The position numbers and the translations under genes were made by a program. Below the pieces are notes generated by a model that searched no databases, had not been told where the DNA came from, and saw nothing but the letters and a program-made list of their open reading frames with translations. Below, in pieces: positions 21,178 to 64,000 of a stretch of 64,000 nt of DNA. Where the stretch lies: NCBI GenBank assembly GCA_040386275.1, contig JAZKFU010000003.1, positions 46,554 to 110,553 of the forward strand. Reading direction: 5' to 3'. Numbering within the stretch: position 1 is the first letter of the stretch; each line of letters starts with the position of its first letter. The DNA comes from Patescibacteria group bacterium (GTDB lineage: Bacteria > Patescibacteriota > Minisyncoccia > Phycocordibacterales > UBA918).

Positions 21178-21600
21178 TTACAGCATTGCGAGAATGTAGT
21201 GGCCAAAAATAAAGAACCCACAGATTAAGGCGGTGGTAGCAGCTATTAACACCGCCGCCGCAGCCACGTCTTTAGTATCCCGAGCATACGGATGGTATTC
21301 CGGTGAAGTTAAATCAATATCAATTTCAATGGCGGTATTAAAAGCTTCCGCACACAATACAAATCCTCCAGCGAGCACCAACACCATCCATTCCACCACT
21401 GTAATTGAAAAGTACATACCCAGAAATATCGCGGCCGCCAAAAATACTAAATGTATCCACGCATTGTGGGTGCTTTTTACAAAAATCCATACTCCCCTCC
21501 CGGCATGCGTAAAACTTTTTGCACGTTTTACTATCGAAAATGAATCATTAAGCGCAGCTGGTTTTTCCATAAGTATTGAAGTTATGACAATATTATACAT
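21178..21600 (-). CDS. dgkA: Diacylglycerol/undecaprenol kinase (DgkA family)
   Basis: Conserved EAFNTAIE motif in a 3-TM ~120-aa core. Confidence 0.7.
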   Translation of the reverse strand: MYNIVITSILMEKPAALNDSFSIVKRAKSFTHAGRGVWIFVKSTHNAWIHLVFLAAAIFLGMYFSITVVEWMVLVLAGGFVLCAEAFNTAIEIDIDLTSPEYHPYARDTKDVAAAAVLIAATTALICGFFIFGHYILAML

Positions 21601-22549
21601 CCATCATTATGTCTCGGGTGAGGGTATTATAGATACCACTCGCAATAAGTTTATTATTAGTTTGATATTCAGCGAGCGCCGCTGTGGTTGCAGGTCCAAA
21701 ATACCCGGTAGCGCCACTAAGCGCGAGCGTGTCACGAGCAGGGCCGGTACTCGAAAATAGTAGGTATAGTTGTAACAACGATACCGAGGCGCCCGTATCG
21801 CCAGTTTTTAAATCTGACATGAGGACACTTGGAATGGTTGCGATGATTTTTTGTAACGCGAGTTGCGCATCTATTGCTGTTCCTAATCCGGATTTTTTAA
21901 GTTCCGTATCAATCGCAGTCGGCAGGTCATACCCTAACCGCGCAGCCTCCATTATTTCTTTAGAAAAAGTGCTGGTGAGAAAGGCGGCGTACTCTCCATC
22001 ATTTCTGAGCTTTTTAAAATGCTGCGGTAAAAATGAAATTTTTTGCTTCAAGGTAAAGTCAGCTCCTAATCGTACATACGGATCGGTAGCTTTATTATCA
22101 TCGTCGCGGACTTCAAAGTGCAAATGGTACACCCCATCTGGAGCATTCCCTGTATCACCCACCGTCCCAATAATATCTCCTACATTTAATCTATCGCCAC
22201 GTCGTATGGGCGCTATTGTATCGAGGTGCATGTAGCGAAAAACTTCACCGCCCGGGTTGGAAGTGTACACAAACTTTCCCGCACTCTCGCCATTTCCTGT
22301 AGCAATCACGGTGGCTTTGGTCGGAGACACAATCGGCGTGCCTTTAGGAGCAAACATATCTTGCCCTTCATGACTTCGCGTCCCGTTACCGCGTGGTTCA
22401 CCAAAATCAGATCGTACTGACGAAGCCGTCACCCCAAACAAAACAGGCACTGAAAATGTTTCCCCGGTAGTCGCTCCATACGCAGTCTTACTCCCGAGCA
22501 ACCCTCCGACTACTAGCGTCAAAGCAAAGGCAAAAATTGAGTATTTCAT
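21593..22549 (-). CDS. M23-family peptidase (LytM-like) with C-terminal peptidoglycan-binding domain
   Basis: HEGQDMFAPKGTPIVSP and GNAPDGVYHLHFEV (the HxH zinc-binding motif). C-terminal YFGPATTAALAEYQ is PG_binding_1-like. Start at MKYSIFAFA. Confidence 0.8.
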   Translation of the reverse strand: MKYSIFAFALTLVVGGLLGSKTAYGATTGETFSVPVLFGVTASSVRSDFGEPRGNGTRSHEGQDMFAPKGTPIVSPTKATVIATGNGESAGKFVYTSNPGGEVFRYMHLDTIAPIRRGDRLNVGDIIGTVGDTGNAPDGVYHLHFEVRDDDNKATDPYVRLGADFTLKQKISFLPQHFKKLRNDGEYAAFLTSTFSKEIMEAARLGYDLPTAIDTELKKSGLGTAIDAQLALQKIIATIPSVLMSDLKTGDTGASVSLLQLYLLFSSTGPARDTLALSGATGYFGPATTAALAEYQTNNKLIASGIYNTLTRDIMMDV

Positions 22550-22615
22550 ACGGTAGTAAGTATACCACTCCCTTCTAACCGCTTTGCAGAACACCACAAC
22601 CCTACAAGAAGGTAC

Positions 22616-49876: not shown

Positions 49877-50575
49877 TTAAAAATTGTAGCTCAGCGTCAA
49901 GCCGAACGTCGTCTGCTTAATTTTTGCCTCAAGCGTTTGGTTACCCATCTGCCCCAGACCAAACGGCTTGTTGGCATCAAACTGCATCTGAGTGGCCTTA
50001 AGTCCAATCGAGAAACGGTCTGAGACTGCGTACTGCACACCGATGGTGTACAAAGCACCCAATGCACCGCCTTCCTTGAAATCAGCCCACGAGCCAAAGG
50101 GTGTATCAAGCGAAAGCCCCATCGACAGATTGGTCGCCACCACTCCGGCGCCGACGTACAGATACACGCGCTCTTGTTTGCCCAGCACGAGTCCCAATTC
50201 ACCACCAGCCGATACCCGCAGGTCCGACGCAATGGTGAACGCCGCAGTCGATTTGTGGTCGTGCCAGTACTTGGCCCCACCGATGCTCCCATCATGAAGC
50301 GAAGCGTTCACTCCGAGACGAAGCTTGCTCTGCCCGAGCGGGAACCGATAGCCAAGCTCATAGGTAGTCACGTTTCCCGTCAGCGGAACATCGAGAATTT
50401 CCCCGAGGGAAATTATCGGTCCATAGTGCGAGAGCGTGAACTCACCATCGCTTTTGCTGGTACCCAGTGAAGCATAGACCCCCGTATAGGGACGCTTCGC
50501 TTCAGCGTTGGAATCGGTTGCGCCCGTCATCAGGGAAACAATCGCCACAGCCAGCATCATCACAACTTTTTTCAT
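49877..50575 (-). CDS. Outer-membrane beta-barrel protein (OmpA-like TM / OmpW / PF13505-like porin family)
   Basis: Signal peptide MKKVVMMLAVAIVSLMTGATDSNA. 8-10 amphipathic beta-strands (TTYELGYRF, LRLGVNASL, VYLYVGAGVVA, LYTIGVQYAVS, FSIGLKATQMQF). C-terminal LSYNF aromatic signature. GC ~56%. Confidence 0.7.
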   Translation of the reverse strand: MKKVVMMLAVAIVSLMTGATDSNAEAKRPYTGVYASLGTSKSDGEFTLSHYGPIISLGEILDVPLTGNVTTYELGYRFPLGQSKLRLGVNASLHDGSIGGAKYWHDHKSTAAFTIASDLRVSAGGELGLVLGKQERVYLYVGAGVVATNLSMGLSLDTPFGSWADFKEGGALGALYTIGVQYAVSDRFSIGLKATQMQFDANKPFGLGQMGNQTLEAKIKQTTFGLTLSYNF

Positions 50576-57808: not shown

Positions 57809-57940
57809 AAATAATAGATATACAGAAAATTACCTGAGCGTATCACCTCCCAAAAACCCTAACGGGTGCTCAACAGCTATTGTATCATACTACCCATTTT
57901 GGGGTGTTTATAAGTTTTTGTAACCCTTTAAATCTTTAAG

Positions 57941-58068
57941 CAAAACAAAATACCCAAGCAAAGCTTAGGTATTTTATTTGTGCTGGAGGAGGGACTTGAA
58001 ACTTACAGTTTCAGTACAGGTTGTCGCTATTTTTTCAAAATAGCTGGCAACCTTTTCAAGTCCCTGGG
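57941..58068. repeat. tRNA-Leu-linked element (copy G): 60-bp direct repeat (spacer hairpin + tRNA 3' end) flanking a 66-bp hairpin core
   Basis: 57941-58000 is identical to 58069-58128, which runs into tRNA-Leu. Core 58001-58066 is acttacag-tttcagtACAGGTTGtc-GCTATTTT-ttc-AAAATAGC-tgg-CAACCTtt-TTCAAGTCCC. Terminator-like palindrome AAAATACCCAAGC-AAA-GCTTAGGTATTTT in each repeat. Confidence 0.8.
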
Positions 58069-58108
58069 CAAAACAAAATACCCAAGCAAAGCTTAGGTAT
58101 TTTATTTG

Positions 58109-58189
58109 TGCTGGAGGAGGGACTTGAACCCTCAAGCCTTGCGGCATGCGATTTTGAGTCGCACGTGTATACCATTCCACCACTCCAGC
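58109..58189 (-). tRNA. tRNA-Leu (anticodon CAA), class II with long variable arm
   Basis: Acceptor GCTGGAG/CTCCAGC + A73, anticodon stem TGCGA/TCGCA with loop CTCAAAA, variable arm GCC-GCAA-GGC, T-arm GAGGG-TTCAAGT-CCCTC. 81 nt. Confidence 0.85.
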
Positions 58190-60050: not shown

Positions 60051-60121
60051 GGGCCTATAGTTCAGTGGTAGAATACCGGTTTCCAAAACCGTTGACCGAG
60101 GTTCAAGTCCTCGTGGGCCCG
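60051..60121 (+). tRNA. tRNA-Trp (anticodon CCA)
   Basis: Acceptor GGGCCTA/TGGGCCC + G73, D-arm GTTC-AGTGGTA-GAAT, anticodon loop TTCCAAA, T-arm CGAGG-TTCAAGT-CCTCG. Confidence 0.85.
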
Positions 60122-60182
60122 CTGAATAAACGAAGTGAGAGCAGAGGGACCACGATAGCAGCTTTTGAAAAAAGCGTTGCGC

Positions 60183-60278
60183 GGACTTGAAGAGGTTGCC
60201 AGCTATCTTTTTGACGAAGGAGAAAAGTAGTGACAACCTGTACAGAATTCGTAGAATTCAAGTCCTCGTGGGCCCGCC
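60183..60278. repeat. tRNA-Trp-linked hairpin element (copy H)
   Basis: Starts with GGACTTGAA (inverted T-loop). Core AGGTTG-cca-GCTATCTTTT...AAAAGTAGT-ga-CAACCT-gtacag. Ends with ttcaagtcctcgtgggcccgcc, a direct copy of the tRNA-Trp 3' 21 nt. Confidence 0.75.
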
Positions 60279-60494: not shown

Positions 60495-61211
60495 TTACGA
60501 TTTAGTATCAAACAATAACTCTTGAGCCTCCAATAAACAGTTTACATCACCACTAAATAAAAGTTCATCTCCAACAAAAATGTAGTGCATAAATCCTTGT
60601 GAACCGTCAGAAAAAAGAACATTTGCTCGACGTACAGTTATATAGTCTATGTCAGTCATTGTCGTAAAATCTGCCTGTTGAATTATCGTTCCTTTACTAC
60701 TTTCCTTAGGAAAAATAATTGGGGCAACATCTGCTACAAGGCTTTTTTCCCATTCTTTTAAATATTTCATTTGATCTGCATACAAATCACCTTGATAGTT
60801 AAATTGCAATTTAAAACGAAGGGACATAACTACATTTGAGTTTTGTGATGCAGTAGCACACTTGTATAACTTCCAATCATTTACATCAATTAGACTACTG
60901 ATGTTGCTATTTATTTTCCCATTTAAAACTGTCGCAAAAGTTTCAATCGATATATTCCCTTCATTACCCGCAAATGCAGACCAAGTATTTTCTGTTTTAG
61001 TTGCACTTAGAAATTCAGTAAAGTTATTTTTCAAGTCCTGGTTAAATTCATTACTATTGTCATCAATGACCGTTTCGAATGCCACATAGTCGTTTTCAGA
61101 ATCAAGTTGAGTTACGGGAGTTGTAGATCTTTTTTGCATAATCGTTACCACTATTAAAATCAGTAGTACGGTTATTGTGAGGAAAAAAAACAATATAATT
61201 TTTTTATTCAT
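60495..61211 (-). CDS. Hypothetical membrane-anchored protein, AT-rich (~33% GC)
   Basis: ORF 60495..61232 with start at MNKKIILFFF and an N-terminal TM. No domain recognised. Composition differs sharply from its neighbours. Confidence 0.45.
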   Translation of the reverse strand: MNKKIILFFFLTITVLLILIVVTIMQKRSTTPVTQLDSENDYVAFETVIDDNSNEFNQDLKNNFTEFLSATKTENTWSAFAGNEGNISIETFATVLNGKINSNISSLIDVNDWKLYKCATASQNSNVVMSLRFKLQFNYQGDLYADQMKYLKEWEKSLVADVAPIIFPKESSKGTIIQQADFTTMTDIDYITVRRANVLFSDGSQGFMHYIFVGDELLFSGDVNCLLEAQELLFDTKS

Positions 61212-61222
61212 AGTGGATATAA

Positions 61223-62284
61223 TTATCTGCAAAAAGTTGATGCTCGCAATACTCTGTATCGGCTATCACTGTAATAACCACTGCCATTACTAATAATAAT
61301 TCCTCTGTTTGTTCCTGCAGCATGGATAACTTGTGAACAACCATTATTCATACAAATTACCACATGACCTGCGCCATTAGTTCTATGAATCAATGCATCG
61401 CCAGTTTGAAGACTGCTAGGGCTACCGATGGGAGCGGAGTAGCGTATCATATCTCCCGTATAAGTACCGATTCGACGACATCCTGCTGCAGCATATGCAT
61501 CGTTAACAAGCTCAGAACAGTCTGTATAGCCCGGACTACCAGTACAAGAATTTCGAAGAGGCTGACTATATTGGCATCGTCGTTGTCGTTGTGCTTCCGC
61601 AAACCGTACAATAGCACTATTGCCTCCAGTACCAATTGGAGCTACATAATCTCCTCCACCGCCGCCCGCACCACCACCACCTAACTCAGACCCAGGTACA
61701 GCTACCGCGGTTGGATCTGGCTCTTCTGCCTCAAGGTATTCTACTTCATCTTGCTCGACCTCATTAAATACAGTTTCAACTTGGTTCTGGCAAGTTACCT
61801 CACTCCAAAACAAATACCCAGAAGCGGTTCCGCCCGCGACAATTTGCCCAGGATTACCATCTGTTCCAACTAACGCCCGCATGATGGTGTCTACAATAAG
61901 CCAGGCAGCTAAAATAATCATAAAGCCAACAATGGCGTTTATAAATGAGGACTTGGCTTCATCGAGCGCATGATGATTCCCCCCTGACGTTACCAACTTC
62001 ACTCCCGCAATAGCGAGCAAAAGTGCGAAGATAACAAATAGTATCCCAATGAGCCAGGTAATTAATCCATTGGCCATCGACACAACATTACAAGCGCTAC
62101 AATCTAAACCAGTACAACCCGACAACTGCGCTAAACCAAGGTCACCTGCAAACGCAGACGGCACAAAAAACCCAAACAGAAAGACTAGTAAGAATATTAT
62201 GGGAACTATTTTCATATTATAGTTTGGCAGTATCGGGACAGAAACTAAACCGGTAATCAAACCCAGAAGCAACTTCATCAACAT
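61223..62284 (-). CDS. VirB2/TrbC-pilin-like double-TM module fused to a CHAP/NlpC-P60-type peptidoglycan amidase/peptidase domain
   Basis: Signal peptide (MKIVPIIFLLVFLFGFFVPSAFA), Cys-rich loop CTGLDCSAC, two hydrophobic helices around KLVTSGGN...EAKSS, Gly-rich linker. C-terminal DCSELVNDAY (Cys) and GHVVIC (His) resemble a CHAP catalytic pair. Start may be the internal Met. Confidence 0.55.
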   Translation of the reverse strand: MLMKLLLGLITGLVSVPILPNYNMKIVPIIFLLVFLFGFFVPSAFAGDLGLAQLSGCTGLDCSACNVVSMANGLITWLIGILFVIFALLLAIAGVKLVTSGGNHHALDEAKSSFINAIVGFMIILAAWLIVDTIMRALVGTDGNPGQIVAGGTASGYLFWSEVTCQNQVETVFNEVEQDEVEYLEAEEPDPTAVAVPGSELGGGGAGGGGGDYVAPIGTGGNSAIVRFAEAQRQRRCQYSQPLRNSCTGSPGYTDCSELVNDAYAAAGCRRIGTYTGDMIRYSAPIGSPSSLQTGDALIHRTNGAGHVVICMNNGCSQVIHAAGTNRGIIISNGSGYYSDSRYRVLRASTFCR

Positions 62285-62714
62285 ATCCCGGAACCGTAAC
62301 TACATATGATAGTTGGCACATTTCCTCTTCATCTATTTTTAATAAATCTTTTAAATAGACTTCGGCTGCTAGCCTACTTTGAGCAAATGGTTTTTGAAGA
62401 AGCGCTATATTAAAGGTGCCAGTATTTTTATCAAACATGACAACGTAGTTAGGTAGTTTGCTCGGAGTTTCTGCAGAAGGGAAAGTATTGCCCAAGGAAT
62501 ACAAACCAGGGTTTTGAACATCCGGCGCTACGGATTCATCTTTCAAAAAATTATTGGTTACTACATTACCTTCGGTAGACGGAAAGGTGACTTGCGAATC
62601 AGTGTATTCAACAGTAGTTACTGGTGTTGAATTATTTTTTGTATATATAATTCCCCCAATCACTATTACAAGCACAATGATTACCGCCAATATGATATAT
62701 ACGTTTTTATTCAT
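62217..62714 (-). CDS. Hypothetical membrane-anchored protein
   Basis: 165 aa with an N-terminal TM, lying between the two pilin-like paralogs. Confidence 0.4.
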   Translation of the reverse strand: MNKNVYIILAVIIVLVIVIGGIIYTKNNSTPVTTVEYTDSQVTFPSTEGNVVTNNFLKDESVAPDVQNPGLYSLGNTFPSAETPSKLPNYVVMFDKNTGTFNIALLQKPFAQSRLAAEVYLKDLLKIDEEEMCQLSYVVTVPGYVDEVASGFDYRFSFCPDTAKL

Positions 62715-62725
62715 GTTGTTTTATG

Positions 62726-63862
62726 TTAGCCACCATAACGCGTAATACATTGCATCGCTCGTGAATTGCAATTGGCACATGTCCAATCATTATACCCATT
62801 ACGCCTTACTATATTAACTGCTACCCTGGTATTACAACTGGCATTCTGACAACTTGTAGCATGGTCACTACAGGAACCCCCAACGTTATATAAATTCCAG
62901 GTCGTTCGCACAATTTGAAATAGCCCACAAGCACTAGAATTAGAACCAGGATGAGTAACATTATATGGTGGAGTTGCGGGGTTACCCGAGCTCTCGGTCA
63001 TAGCAATACACGACATTACATTTGCCTGTGTAATAGTCATGCCAGCCGCGCGTAACGCAGGGACGCTACAGTAGGTATTAGTACATTGCGGTAAACTACC
63101 CCCTGTCCCACCACCACTGACTTGTCGCGGAGCACACAGTACAGCACTTCCGGCAGCGTTAAGGGTTGGCGTACCAGGCGCAGCGCGACACTGTGCTTCT
63201 TGAGCCGAACAATCATACTCATTTACTCCCGGCGGTCCTGGCAGAAGTCTACAGGCGGCATTATAAGAACCAGCTGGAGCTGAAGAACCTCCTGCAGTAC
63301 TCCCCGCCGGCACCCAACCCTGCACACCACCCAGCCCTTCCTCAAGCGAAAGGTACTCAATAGCATCTTGTGTAACGGTAATCGAGCGAGCCAGTGGCTG
63401 ATCAACACAGCTTATTTGATTCCAGACACCAAAACTATATGTCCCATCTTGAAGCAACAAAGCGCGCAACCCATAGTCGAGCACCAACCACGCCGCTAAC
63501 ACAATTAAGTATCCAATCAACAAATTAGTCATGGAACTTTTCGCTTCTTCTTTCGCACTAGAATTACCCGCTGACGTTACTAATCGTGCCCCCGCCACAA
63601 CGATCAAAATCGCCGCAATCACCCCGAGTATCATCACGAGCCACCCCACAACATTGTTAACCAATACCACCACATGACATGCCTGACACGGCGGTTCACC
63701 TGCTCCGCCACACGCTGGCACCAAACCAGCCGCCCCGACCGACACCGGAACAATAAATATACAAACCATTACCACAAGGGCTACCAGGAGTTTCTGCATT
63801 ACCAATAAGCTTACCACACAACCCCTTTCTAAATACCCGAAACTGTGATAATTTGTACCCAC
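62726..63862 (-). CDS. VirB2/TrbC-pilin-like double-TM module fused to a lytic transglycosylase (SLT) domain
   Basis: N-terminal module paralogous to 61223..62284 (RLVTSAGN...EAKSS...VLAAWLVLD). C-terminal IAMTESSGNP and GLFQI, the ES / GLxQ signatures of family-1 lytic transglycosylases. Cys-rich. Confidence 0.6.
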   Translation of the reverse strand: MGTNYHSFGYLERGCVVSLLVMQKLLVALVVMVCIFIVPVSVGAAGLVPACGGAGEPPCQACHVVVLVNNVVGWLVMILGVIAAILIVVAGARLVTSAGNSSAKEEAKSSMTNLLIGYLIVLAAWLVLDYGLRALLLQDGTYSFGVWNQISCVDQPLARSITVTQDAIEYLSLEEGLGGVQGWVPAGSTAGGSSAPAGSYNAACRLLPGPPGVNEYDCSAQEAQCRAAPGTPTLNAAGSAVLCAPRQVSGGGTGGSLPQCTNTYCSVPALRAAGMTITQANVMSCIAMTESSGNPATPPYNVTHPGSNSSACGLFQIVRTTWNLYNVGGSCSDHATSCQNASCNTRVAVNIVRRNGYNDWTCANCNSRAMQCITRYGG

Positions 63863-63893: not shown

Positions 63894-63976
63894 GCGTCGG
63901 TACTCAAGCGGTCAACGAGGGGAGACTGTAAATCTCCTGGCATCTGCCTACGAAGGTTCGAATCCCTCCCGGCGCA
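63894..63976 (+). tRNA. tRNA-Tyr (anticodon GTA), class II
   Basis: Acceptor GCGTCGG/CCGGCGC + A73, D-loop AAGCGGTCAAC, anticodon stem GGAGA/TCTCC with loop CTGTAAA (as in E. coli tRNA-Tyr), variable arm GGCATCTGCC, T-arm GAAGG-TTCGAAT-CCCTC (one mismatch). Confidence 0.75.
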
Positions 63977-64000
63977 CGCGTATAAAAAACAGCTCAGGCA

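Follow-up and report, generated by a model that had tools for sequence, protein, structure and literature searches.

Gram-positive VirB1-like bifunctional hydrolases, such as PrgK of pCF10 and TraG of pIP501, carry SLT and CHAP activities on one polypeptide, are tethered to the membrane outside the cell by a single TM helix, and are presumed to open the wall for the type IV secretion system (T4SS). Classical T-pilins are cyclised head to tail. In Southlakia epibionticum, a member of the Patescibacteria, a phylum that represents a large share of bacterial diversity, the VirB2-like pilin array SEML1_0014-0019 is essential (Wang 2023, PMC10633639; Quinonero-Coronel 2025, PMC12102498). The essential T4SS cluster of this species also includes, beside VirB4, an unfused lysozyme plus Cys-proteinase protein and an M15B-like protein (PMC10633639, PMC12102498). 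The T4SS and VirB2-like pilins of Patescibacteria have been tested in a single species, where they proved essential, and the role of the system is unsettled (PMC11665869, PMC12857230); polymerisation of even the short pilins into a pilus is not yet demonstrated (PMC12857230). Among the six short pilin genes of Southlakia, we saw the PF18895 annotation for 0014-0016, 0018 and 0019. The literature that we searched makes no mention of a fusion between a pilin and a hydrolase.

The stretch of DNA that was analysed (64,000 nucleotides, hereafter the window) encodes two such fusions. The source is a Kaiserbacteria-like Patescibacterium, and the two genes lie on the minus strand in a four-gene chromosomal operon with the order PIL1-lysozyme, mid, PIL2-NlpC/P60 and down. 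The features are as follows.

63894..63977, plus strand: tRNA-Tyr(GTA), conserved flank upstream of the cassette
62726..63817, minus strand: PIL1, pilin module plus C-terminal lysozyme-like/lytic transglycosylase domain (PF18895, PF18896 SLT_3)
63407..63712, minus strand: PIL1 pilin module, with Cys cluster CGGAGEPPCQAC, helix 1, polar loop RLVTSAGNSSAKEEAKSS, helix 2 and WNQISC
62780..63052, minus strand: PIL1 SLT_3 catalytic domain, with TESSG at 62984..62998 and GLFQI at 62912..62926
62217..62714, minus strand: mid, 165 aa, N-terminal TM anchor plus an outside domain of ~110 aa
61223..62215, minus strand: PIL2, pilin module plus C-terminal NlpC/P60 endopeptidase
61790..62116, minus strand: PIL2 pilin module, with CTGLDCSAC, helix 1, loop KLVTSGGNHHALDEAKSS, helix 2 and WSEVTC
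61634..61789, minus strand: PIL2 linker, rich in Gly, Glu and Pro, predicted disordered
61226..61633, minus strand: PIL2 NlpC/P60 domain, with C233 at 61514..61522, H284 at 61361..61369 and H298 at 61319..61327
60495..61211, minus strand: down, 238 aa, TM anchor and two conserved Cys
60051..60122, plus strand: tRNA-Trp(CCA), conserved flank downstream of the cassette

A first-pass annotation, made from the letters of the window, had claimed open reading frames at 61223..62284 and 62726..63862 on the minus strand, and both are real in the ORF listing. PIL2 probably starts at ATG 62215 (330 aa), with its reading frame open up to 62284. The likely start of PIL1 is GTG 63817 (363 aa), in a frame open as far as 63862; ATG 63799 is an alternative start. 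The GTG start is supported by a 363-aa protein of a public assembly (P0001) that is 100% identical to PIL1. Promoter and terminator scans performed no better than on shuffled sequence.

PIL1 and PIL2 have a common layout: they begin with a Sec signal peptide and a Cys cluster, continue with a helix-loop-helix hairpin of VirB2 type and a flexible linker (~50-110 residues), and end in a peptidoglycan hydrolase domain. Their N-terminal ~165 aa share 40% identity in a 163-aa alignment whose E value, 2e-28, lies far outside what chance would produce. Both proteins indeed contain the Cys cluster, (K/R)LVTS(G/A)GN...EAKSS and ILAAWL(I/V) motifs described at first pass, where the module was read as a VirB2/TrbC-type pilin layout. 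The T4SS_pilin family PF18895 (gathering score 26.6) is matched above threshold by PIL2 (36.4 bits) and PIL1 (40.2 bits), and likewise by 40 of 40 PIL1 and 39 of 40 PIL2 orthologues. Neither window protein matches PF04956 (TrbC) at E<=1; nine of the 40 PIL2 orthologues do match it, the best at 4.4e-7. When the module was compared by hhalign with seven genuine VirB2 proteins, collected by tblastn, the alignment covered both helices over 63 columns (probability 67%, E 5e-5). The pilin assignment holds at the level of PF18895, and the two proteins depart from the PF18895 type in being enzyme fusions of 330 and 363 aa, neither small (~100-150 aa) and standalone nor beside a virB4 cluster. A near-full-length match to the NCBIfam Mycoplasma-ICE pilin-like conjugal transfer protein scores below its threshold.

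An AlphaFold (AF2) model of PIL2 places the hairpin helices at residues 37-76 and 81-116 (pLDDT 80-87), and hydropathy segments concur. No secondary structure is modelled in residues 117-194, where pLDDT falls below 50 at 170-194, and values are also low around C142. A profile of the module matched nothing among PDB sequences, pilins included, and the top 50 Foldseek matches of the full PIL2 model were to NlpC/P60 proteins only.

The pilin module behaves as an autonomous unit. Standalone pilins of 126-160 aa, encoded at the same clpB-adjacent locus, terminate exactly at GPWNxIC, and one protein with the module bears an adhesin-like passenger on its N-terminal side, an arrangement consistent with both termini of the hairpin lying outside the cell. 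Furthermore, module identity reaches ~70% between proteins with non-homologous enzymes, and G, K, N, W and C residues are invariant. Conservation of the module far exceeds that of a simple anchor.

The C-terminal domains are predicted to be a lytic-transglycosylase-like or lysozyme-like domain in PIL1 and a peptidoglycan peptidase in PIL2. The C-terminus of PIL1 scores 32.7 bits against PF18896 SLT_3 (cutoff 27) and 18.3 against PF01464 SLT, below the cutoff of 21.3 for that family. Its catalytic motifs TESSG and GLFQI are intact, and conservation of the E-S and G.FQ positions across 40 PIL1 orthologues is 90% or higher. For PIL2, the match is to NLPC_P60 (PF00877; 31.4 bits, cutoff 23), the Cys-His-His motifs DCS (C233), GHV (H284) and IHA (H298) are intact, and the domain is modelled at pLDDT 89-96. 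The earlier proposal of two different wall-hydrolase types, one SLT-like and one a Cys-His peptidase, is therefore correct, except that the peptidase is NlpC/P60 proper and not CHAP. Top Foldseek matches of the PIL2 model (E 6e-6) are MepS/Spr, SagA, LytE and RipA. These NlpC/P60 D,L-endopeptidases, from E. coli, E. faecium, B. subtilis and M. tuberculosis, respectively, are alike in fold and catalytic triad, whereas they are targeted by a lipobox, LysM or coiled coil and PIL2 by its pilin hairpin. An M23 peptidase with PG_binding_1 (21593..22597) is a further wall hydrolase encoded in the window.

How does this arrangement compare with the described systems? PrgK and TraG offer the same pair of activities, namely a lytic transglycosylase or lysozyme and a Cys-His peptidase of the NlpC/P60-CHAP clan. 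In contrast to those proteins, the activities here are divided over two polypeptides, as the first-pass annotation had claimed when it contrasted the split with VirB1-like proteins; the separate proteins are confirmed, again with NlpC/P60 as the peptidase. Other differences are the pilin-like hairpin that serves as anchor in place of a single TM helix, the use of a LAS metallopeptidase as the peptidase in most relatives, and the location of the genes away from any T4SS operon; PrgK itself found no match by phmmer.

The short Southlakia pilins come from the same phylum; PIL1 and PIL2 match their Pfam family above threshold and have the same signal peptide and two-helix hairpin. However, the Southlakia pilins measure ~125-140 aa, whereas PIL1 and PIL2 are fused through a long linker to a hydrolase of ~135-170 aa, number exactly two, each with its own fixed class of enzyme, do not adjoin virB4, and contain a conserved Cys cluster and WxxxC motif. 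Relative to classical TrbC/VirB2 proteins (PF04956; Agrobacterium T-pilin, RP4 TrbC), topology is alike and the hhalign match spans the whole mature pilin, although sequence similarity is marginal, the loop is ~7 residues longer, and large passenger domains are present. No counterpart of T-pilin cyclisation is known for the PIL proteins, in which conserved Cys residues at both ends could hypothetically staple the hairpin instead.

PIL1 and PIL2 are ancient paralogues whose division of labour is fixed. For 70 of 71 modules compared, the nearest neighbour falls in the same positional class (PIL1 or PIL2). Among orthologues, the PIL1 enzyme is always a cutter of glycan strands and the PIL2 enzyme always a cutter of peptide stems, which is NlpC/P60 here and a VanY/M15 LAS metallopeptidase in most relatives. 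The PIL2 enzyme has been exchanged among non-homologous peptidases.

In 36 loci, the genes follow the order PIL1-lysozyme, ~170-aa membrane protein, PIL2-peptidase, with flanks that include tRNA-Tyr, tRNA-Trp, clpB, miaA, parB, relA and topA. At least 11 other genomes have the cassette between the same two tRNAs, and in about 40 it adjoins the same housekeeping genes. It is a conserved core operon that has been vertically inherited rather than acquired as an island.

Secretion genes were sought on the chromosome around this operon. A Pfam scan of 30 window ORFs recognised no VirB4, VirB6 or VirD4, and no phage structural gene was recognised in the window either. In relatives, a survey of about 70 loci to 10 kb on either side likewise recognised no VirB4, VirB6, VirD4 or other T4SS gene and no gene for a phage structural protein. 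PrgJ, PcfC, PrgH, PrgI, PrgK and PrgL of pCF10 had no phmmer match among all ORFs of 74 loci, in a screen run without a positive control and thus of uncertain sensitivity. As a complement, ORFs of at least 480 aa were clustered and their representatives scanned with Pfam, which returned ClpB, IF-2, RelA/SpoT, TopA and similar proteins and one weak VirD4-like match, in locus L010. The first-pass annotation had suggested that the remaining apparatus may lie beyond base 64000. We judged that region from a syntenic relative (L001/L004) as a proxy, which gave this placement no support: past the equivalent position, L004 encodes Sua5, UvrC-like, GH6 and PMT_2 proteins, together with two ORFs of ~220-230 aa and one of 305 aa without Pfam matches, and no T4SS gene was recognised there.

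This lack of linkage to T4SS genes would fit another function. PIL1 and PIL2 might be housekeeping autolysins, a glycosidase and an endopeptidase for the cell's own growth and division, with the hairpin a mere anchor, mid a regulator, and no link to a T4SS or pilus. Vertical inheritance of the cassette within the core genome, between clpB/tRNA and miaA, parB, relA and topA, fits this idea, as does the need of even reduced genomes for one glycan cutter and one peptide cutter. Regulated endopeptidase pairs are also known, and LytE-IseA and MepS-NlpI are among the structural matches. However, a plain anchor would hardly keep up to ~70% identity and invariant polar residues while its enzyme is swapped, and the same module also occurs as a standalone short pilin and with an adhesin-like passenger. 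Moreover, the same enzyme types reside within the essential T4SS cluster of Southlakia, and the window already supplies a wall hydrolase in its M23 peptidase. On balance, we consider an autolysin function rather unlikely.

The remaining two genes bear on a different alternative. The family of the mid protein has no annotation, comprises about 2,100 clusters, is found between PIL1 and PIL2, and is seen only within this operon. Its residues R114, C133 and C159 are invariant and an FSFCP motif is conserved. The down gene occupies fourth place in the operon of the Kaiserbacteria-like clade, evolves fast and is absent elsewhere; beyond the TM helix, the mid and down families show no homology. A weak match to TipC2 was not reproduced by Foldseek. 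Conceivably, hydrolase-pilins on a pilus or released from it digest the wall of a host or prey cell, with the TM-anchored mid and down, whose genes each follow a hydrolase gene, as cognate immunity proteins or inhibitors that shield the producer's wall. We regard such a weapon as improbable, given the weakness of the TipC2 match, the restriction of down to one clade, and genes that are orthologous and syntenic without the variability of polymorphic toxins. In addition, mid is one conserved family irrespective of the peptidase family in PIL2, as would be expected of a partner of PIL1 or of the pilin module more than of an immunity gene that diversifies. In the reading that we favour, given next, mid is most likely a partner or regulator, and possibly an inhibitor.

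The reading that we prefer, and to which we give about an even chance, is that this core operon provides enzymes, tethered on the cell surface, that cut glycan and peptide for the type IV secretion or pilus system of Patescibacteria. By Rosetta-stone reasoning, the same activities occurring unfused beside PF18895 pilins in the Southlakia cluster would tie the PIL-hydrolases to the T4SS. If both ends of the hairpin face outward, as in VirB2, then the enzymes would be tethered on the cell surface. PIL1 and PIL2 would then be a split, pilin-borne counterpart of PrgK and TraG, and would form the wall-cutting component of a T4SS or pilus system whose other genes may reside elsewhere in the genome. 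The pilin module might target the enzymes to the site of T4SS or pilus assembly, or into the pilus itself, and the wall that is cut could be the cell's own or that of a host. Regardless of the target, a widespread, vertically inherited operon physically joins pilin modules to enzymes that cut glycan in one case and peptide in the other, and such fusion suggests a direct link of this pilin family to peptidoglycan cleavage. The operon yields candidates for the opening of a wall, either that of the cell itself when a pilus or T4SS is assembled or that of the host when the cell feeds.

A bolder proposal, which we put forward as a long shot, is that the hydrolase-pilins co-polymerise with short PF18895 pilins to form an enzyme-armed T4SS pilus that bores through the host wall. 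In VirB2-type subunits the C-terminus points outward, so that such a pilus would carry tethered glycan-cutting and peptide-cutting enzymes along its shaft or at its tip. A disulfide between the Cys cluster and WxxxC would replace cyclisation, and mid would silence the enzymes on the producer's wall. If true, such a pilus would give an epibiotic ultrasmall bacterium a way through the wall of its host.

Finally, the tRNA flanks and base composition of the interval had been read at first pass as signs of an integrated island, or of a prophage-like lysis unit. The underlying observations are sound: tRNA-Trp and tRNA-Tyr do bracket the interval, and the GC contrast is real. The 245-aa down ORF has a GC content of 0.32 and a GC3 of 0.26, the window minimum, compared with 0.45-0.49 for the pilin genes. 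An island or prophage-derived lysis cassette inserted between the two tRNAs could also draw on the duplicated 3' end of tRNA-Trp, on PHROGs matches of the hydrolase domains to phage tail lysins, and on a serine recombinase that adjoins PIL1 in three distant loci. The data already contradict this reading, which we consider extremely improbable. The first-pass annotation had itself named core-genome conservation in relatives as evidence against an island and proposed an island-boundary comparison; the interval is indeed core genome, and the cassette occupies the same tRNA-flanked site in related genomes. The tRNA-bracketed interval showed no integrase or holin and no gene for phage structure (ORFs, Pfam, PHROGs), and the tail lysin matches are at the domain level only. 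The last 21 nt of tRNA-Trp are repeated at 60257..60277 around a strain-specific insert of 134 nt, so that the repeat brackets this insert and not the cassette, and it is absent from relatives that retain the cassette. For genome scanning, tRNA flanks combined with a mosaic GC content are thus no sign of an island here. The mosaic recurs in L004, the sole relative examined, and derives mostly from amino-acid composition. Specifically, the pilin genes have an ordinary GC3 and their GC excess sits at codon position 2, and even the low-GC down gene has positional orthologues.

A scan of the window for open reading frames (ORFs) and tRNA genes reveals four closely spaced minus-strand ORFs flanked by tRNA-Tyr and tRNA-Trp. 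Two of them encode proteins with a pilin module and a C-terminal enzyme domain, which is lysozyme-like in PIL1 and a peptidase in PIL2.

63894..63977, tRNA-Tyr, flank of the four-ORF cassette
62726..63817, minus strand, PIL1, 363 aa as called in a public assembly (P0001, a public protein 100% identical to PIL1); the frame is open to 63862
62217..62714, minus strand, mid, the gene between PIL1 and PIL2, 165 aa
61223..62215, minus strand, PIL2, 330 aa
60495..61211, minus strand, down, the gene after PIL2, 238 aa
60051..60122, tRNA-Trp, flank of the four-ORF cassette

The ATG of PIL2 is located one base past the mid stop codon. In another assembly of the same organism (L002:265-1399), the PIL1 call is broken into overlapping stretches of 167 and 226 aa, indicating that, compared with the window, this contig has a frameshift or an assembly error.

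The first-pass annotation described paired pilin-like modules fused to two different hydrolases, and alignment, Pfam searches, catalytic motifs and a structural model of PIL2 agree on this architecture. Specifically, the N-terminal ~165 residues of PIL1 and PIL2 share 40% identity in a pairwise alignment (E 2e-28), and both N-termini exceed the gathering score of PF18895 (T4SS_pilin). The C-terminus of PIL1 matches PF18896 (SLT_3) and retains the catalytic motifs TESSG and GLFQI, and that of PIL2 matches PF00877 (NlpC/P60) with C233 (DCS), H284 (GHV) and H298 (IHA) intact. Thus, an SLT-type enzyme in PIL1 and a Cys-His peptidase in PIL2 were correctly recognized, with the sole amendment that the latter is of the NlpC/P60 type proper, not CHAP. 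An AlphaFold2 model of PIL2, built from 54 homologues, has four parts.

Part 1, signal-peptide helix
Part 2, residues 37-76 and 81-116, helical hairpin, pLDDT 80-87
Part 3, residues 117-194, Gly/Glu/Pro-rich linker without structure
Part 4, NlpC/P60 domain, pLDDT 89-96; its closest solved structures are MepS/Spr, SagA, LytE and RipA

Related genomes define the limits of the pilin module. Standalone pilins of 126-160 aa in some genomes terminate exactly at GPWNxIC, an ending that marks the module boundary; those at six loci (L032, L033, L036, L040, L043 and L054, the last four adjoining clpB) are 135-158 aa long and carry the same Cys cluster. The sequences suggest that a Cys-Cys staple may join the two termini of the module. 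At another locus (L018:7514-10279), a 921-aa protein begins with a TSP1/CARDB adhesin-like region and carries the module at its extreme C-terminus, ending in WYTISCV, such that the passenger is N-terminal to the module, whereas the hydrolases are fused on its C-terminal side. Given the standalone pilins and this N-terminal passenger, the module is an autonomous unit that tolerates extracellular passengers at either end.

This topology is that of VirB2. The likeness to VirB2/TrbC-type pilins noted previously is supported by PF18895 and by an hhalign comparison with seven genuine VirB2 proteins, in which the whole hairpin is aligned (probability 67%, E 5e-5). PF04956 (TrbC) is also matched by 9 of 40 PIL2 orthologues, and overall the link to classical pilins is moderate. 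NCBIfam model NF045849, the 'Mbov_0395 family pilin-like conjugal transfer protein' of Mycoplasma ICEs, matches the modules of 61223-62215 and 62726-63799 over nearly its full 80-residue profile, at 26 bits versus a cutoff of 40 bits. Given this below-cutoff match, a pilin-like relative may also occur in the MPF-FATA systems of monoderms that lack a wall.

Every homologue belongs to the Patescibacteria/CPR (Kaiserbacteria, Paceibacteria, Parcubacteria and Minisyncoccota). Species-representative genomes yielded 71 Patescibacteria loci when scanned, and a pilin-module HMM finds two module genes at 45 of these, more than two at 4 and one at the remainder. The PIL1/mid/PIL2 order is present at 36 loci, the window included. 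PIL1 and PIL2 are ancient paralogues, since the nearest neighbour of a module in another genome belongs to the same position class in 70 of 71 cases. Among 40 orthologues, PIL1 always carries a lysozyme-like domain, with E-S and G.FQ at least 90% conserved; Pfam detects this domain in just 10 of the 40. PIL2 always carries a peptidoglycan peptidase, whose family varies by genome (by Pfam, VanY 9, M15_4 3, M15_3 3, NlpC/P60 3, Amidase_5 1). Given these counts, an NlpC/P60 domain has taken the place of a LAS metallopeptidase in a minority of genomes, that of the window among them. The module itself reaches ~70% identity between proteins bearing non-homologous enzymes, and its conserved residues include C39, C42, G71, G79, K88, N93, G97, W105, W137 and C142.

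Some loci carry additional genes. After the triad, L009 (10001-11113) and L021 (10847-11518) each have a third gene with a pilin module, and a second, divergent mid-family paralogue follows PIL2 at L029:4831-5382 (E 3e-16), a position that is otherwise empty or occupied by the unrelated 'down' family.

The interval between the two tRNA genes had been read as an integrated island, but it is conserved as core genome in relatives, a condition that the first-pass annotation itself had named as refuting, so the island interpretation does not hold. In a relative with ~59% protein identity (L001/L004), the four genes are in identical order between tRNA-Tyr and tRNA-Trp, with miaA, parB, relA/spoT, topA and dprA as neighbours. 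Upstream tRNA-Tyr and downstream tRNA-Trp are kept in at least 11 scanned relatives, another clade has tRNA-Trp directly upstream of PIL1, and ClpB, IF-2, RelA/SpoT and TopA recur as large neighbours. The GC mosaic of the cassette is real and also seen in L004, where mid and down again have low GC; down has positional orthologues in L004, L005, L007, L009 and L012. GC3 is unremarkable in the pilin genes (0.34 and 0.40; window mean 0.41, sd 0.08); their GC is raised at codon position 2, since the encoded proteins are Gly/Ala/Cys/Pro-rich.

The last 21 nt of tRNA-Trp (60102-60122) are exactly repeated 155 nt downstream (60257-60277) around a 134-nt insert, with the pilin cassette outside the repeat. 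The repeat is present in one copy in L004, L007 and L009 and in two in L002, and the insert is missing in relatives that keep the cassette. This feature at the tRNA is either a small insertion specific to the strain or the remnant of an att site. Close by, another tRNA has its 3' end duplicated, tRNA-Leu(CAA), in a 74-nt direct repeat (57927-58000 and 58055-58128; 92% identity, spacing 128) that also takes in a downstream, hairpin-like stretch. In three distant genomes, a large serine recombinase is encoded upstream of PIL1, one ORF apart (L009:4870-6636, L056:6692-8155 and L072:4599-6062; the first two have Resolvase and Recombinase domains, the third is assigned by clustering only), which suggests occasional mobile-element insertion at the cassette site.

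The suggestion that the remaining apparatus lies past base 64000 fares no better, as the proxy locus from the relative L001/L004 has Sua5, UvrC-like, GH6 and PMT_2 proteins there, together with two ORFs of ~220-230 aa and one of 305 aa without Pfam match. For the proposed prophage-like lysis unit, PHROGs gives tail-lysin matches at the domain level only. Neither an island nor a prophage should be considered further.

Of 30 further window ORFs scanned with Pfam, those with a match have housekeeping or metabolic roles (such as ParB, MiaA, RelA/SpoT, TopA, DprA, SerRS, clamp-loader subunits, ExoVII and glycosidases), and none is a VirB4, VirB6, VirD4 or phage structural protein. Within 10 kb of the cassette at ~70 loci, the only T4SS-type match is a weak VirD4-like one (L010). 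Because of this core-genome location and missing linkage to T4SS genes, a substantial rival reading is that PIL1 and PIL2 are T4SS-independent housekeeping autolysins.

Why, then, would wall-cutting enzymes be carried on pilin modules? PIL1 and PIL2 are secreted membrane-hairpin proteins in which a long, flexible tether bears an intact enzyme domain, glycan-cutting in one and peptide-cutting in the other, and the gene of a conserved exported partner lies with theirs in what looks like an operon. The hydrolase domains would act outside the membrane. Our preferred reading is that they work with the T4SS/pilus of Patescibacteria, because the carrier belongs to its pilin family (PMC12102498, PMC10633639), because the carrier shows the conservation of a unit that interacts or polymerises, unlike a passive anchor, and because the essential T4SS cluster of Southlakia epibionticum encodes the same activities. 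There they are unfused (a lysozyme x2 plus Cys-proteinase protein and an M15B-like protein), beside VirB4 and six genes for short pilins, with PF18895 annotation seen for five. A fusion in one lineage is a sign that the separate counterparts are functionally associated in the other. If PIL1 and PIL2 serve the T4SS/pilus, they are a split, pilin-borne analogue of the VirB1-like SLT and CHAP proteins PrgK and TraG. Their target may be the wall of the producing cell, which would be opened to accommodate the machine, or that of the host, and the hairpin may only direct targeting to the assembly site or be part of the pilus.

The literature searched holds no description of the pilin-hydrolase fusion itself, of the fixed lysozyme/mid/peptidase triad, or of its core-genome site away from virB4. 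The Pfam families and domain architecture are already catalogued, and JGI names relatives 'Type IV secretion system pilin/NlpC/P60 family'.

Elsewhere in the window, a 232-aa ORF (49877-50575, minus strand) matches the outer-membrane beta-barrel family PF13505 (E 7e-11), which is odd in a presumed monoderm Patescibacterium. It has the highest GC3 of the window (0.63 versus a mean of 0.41) and may have been horizontally acquired.
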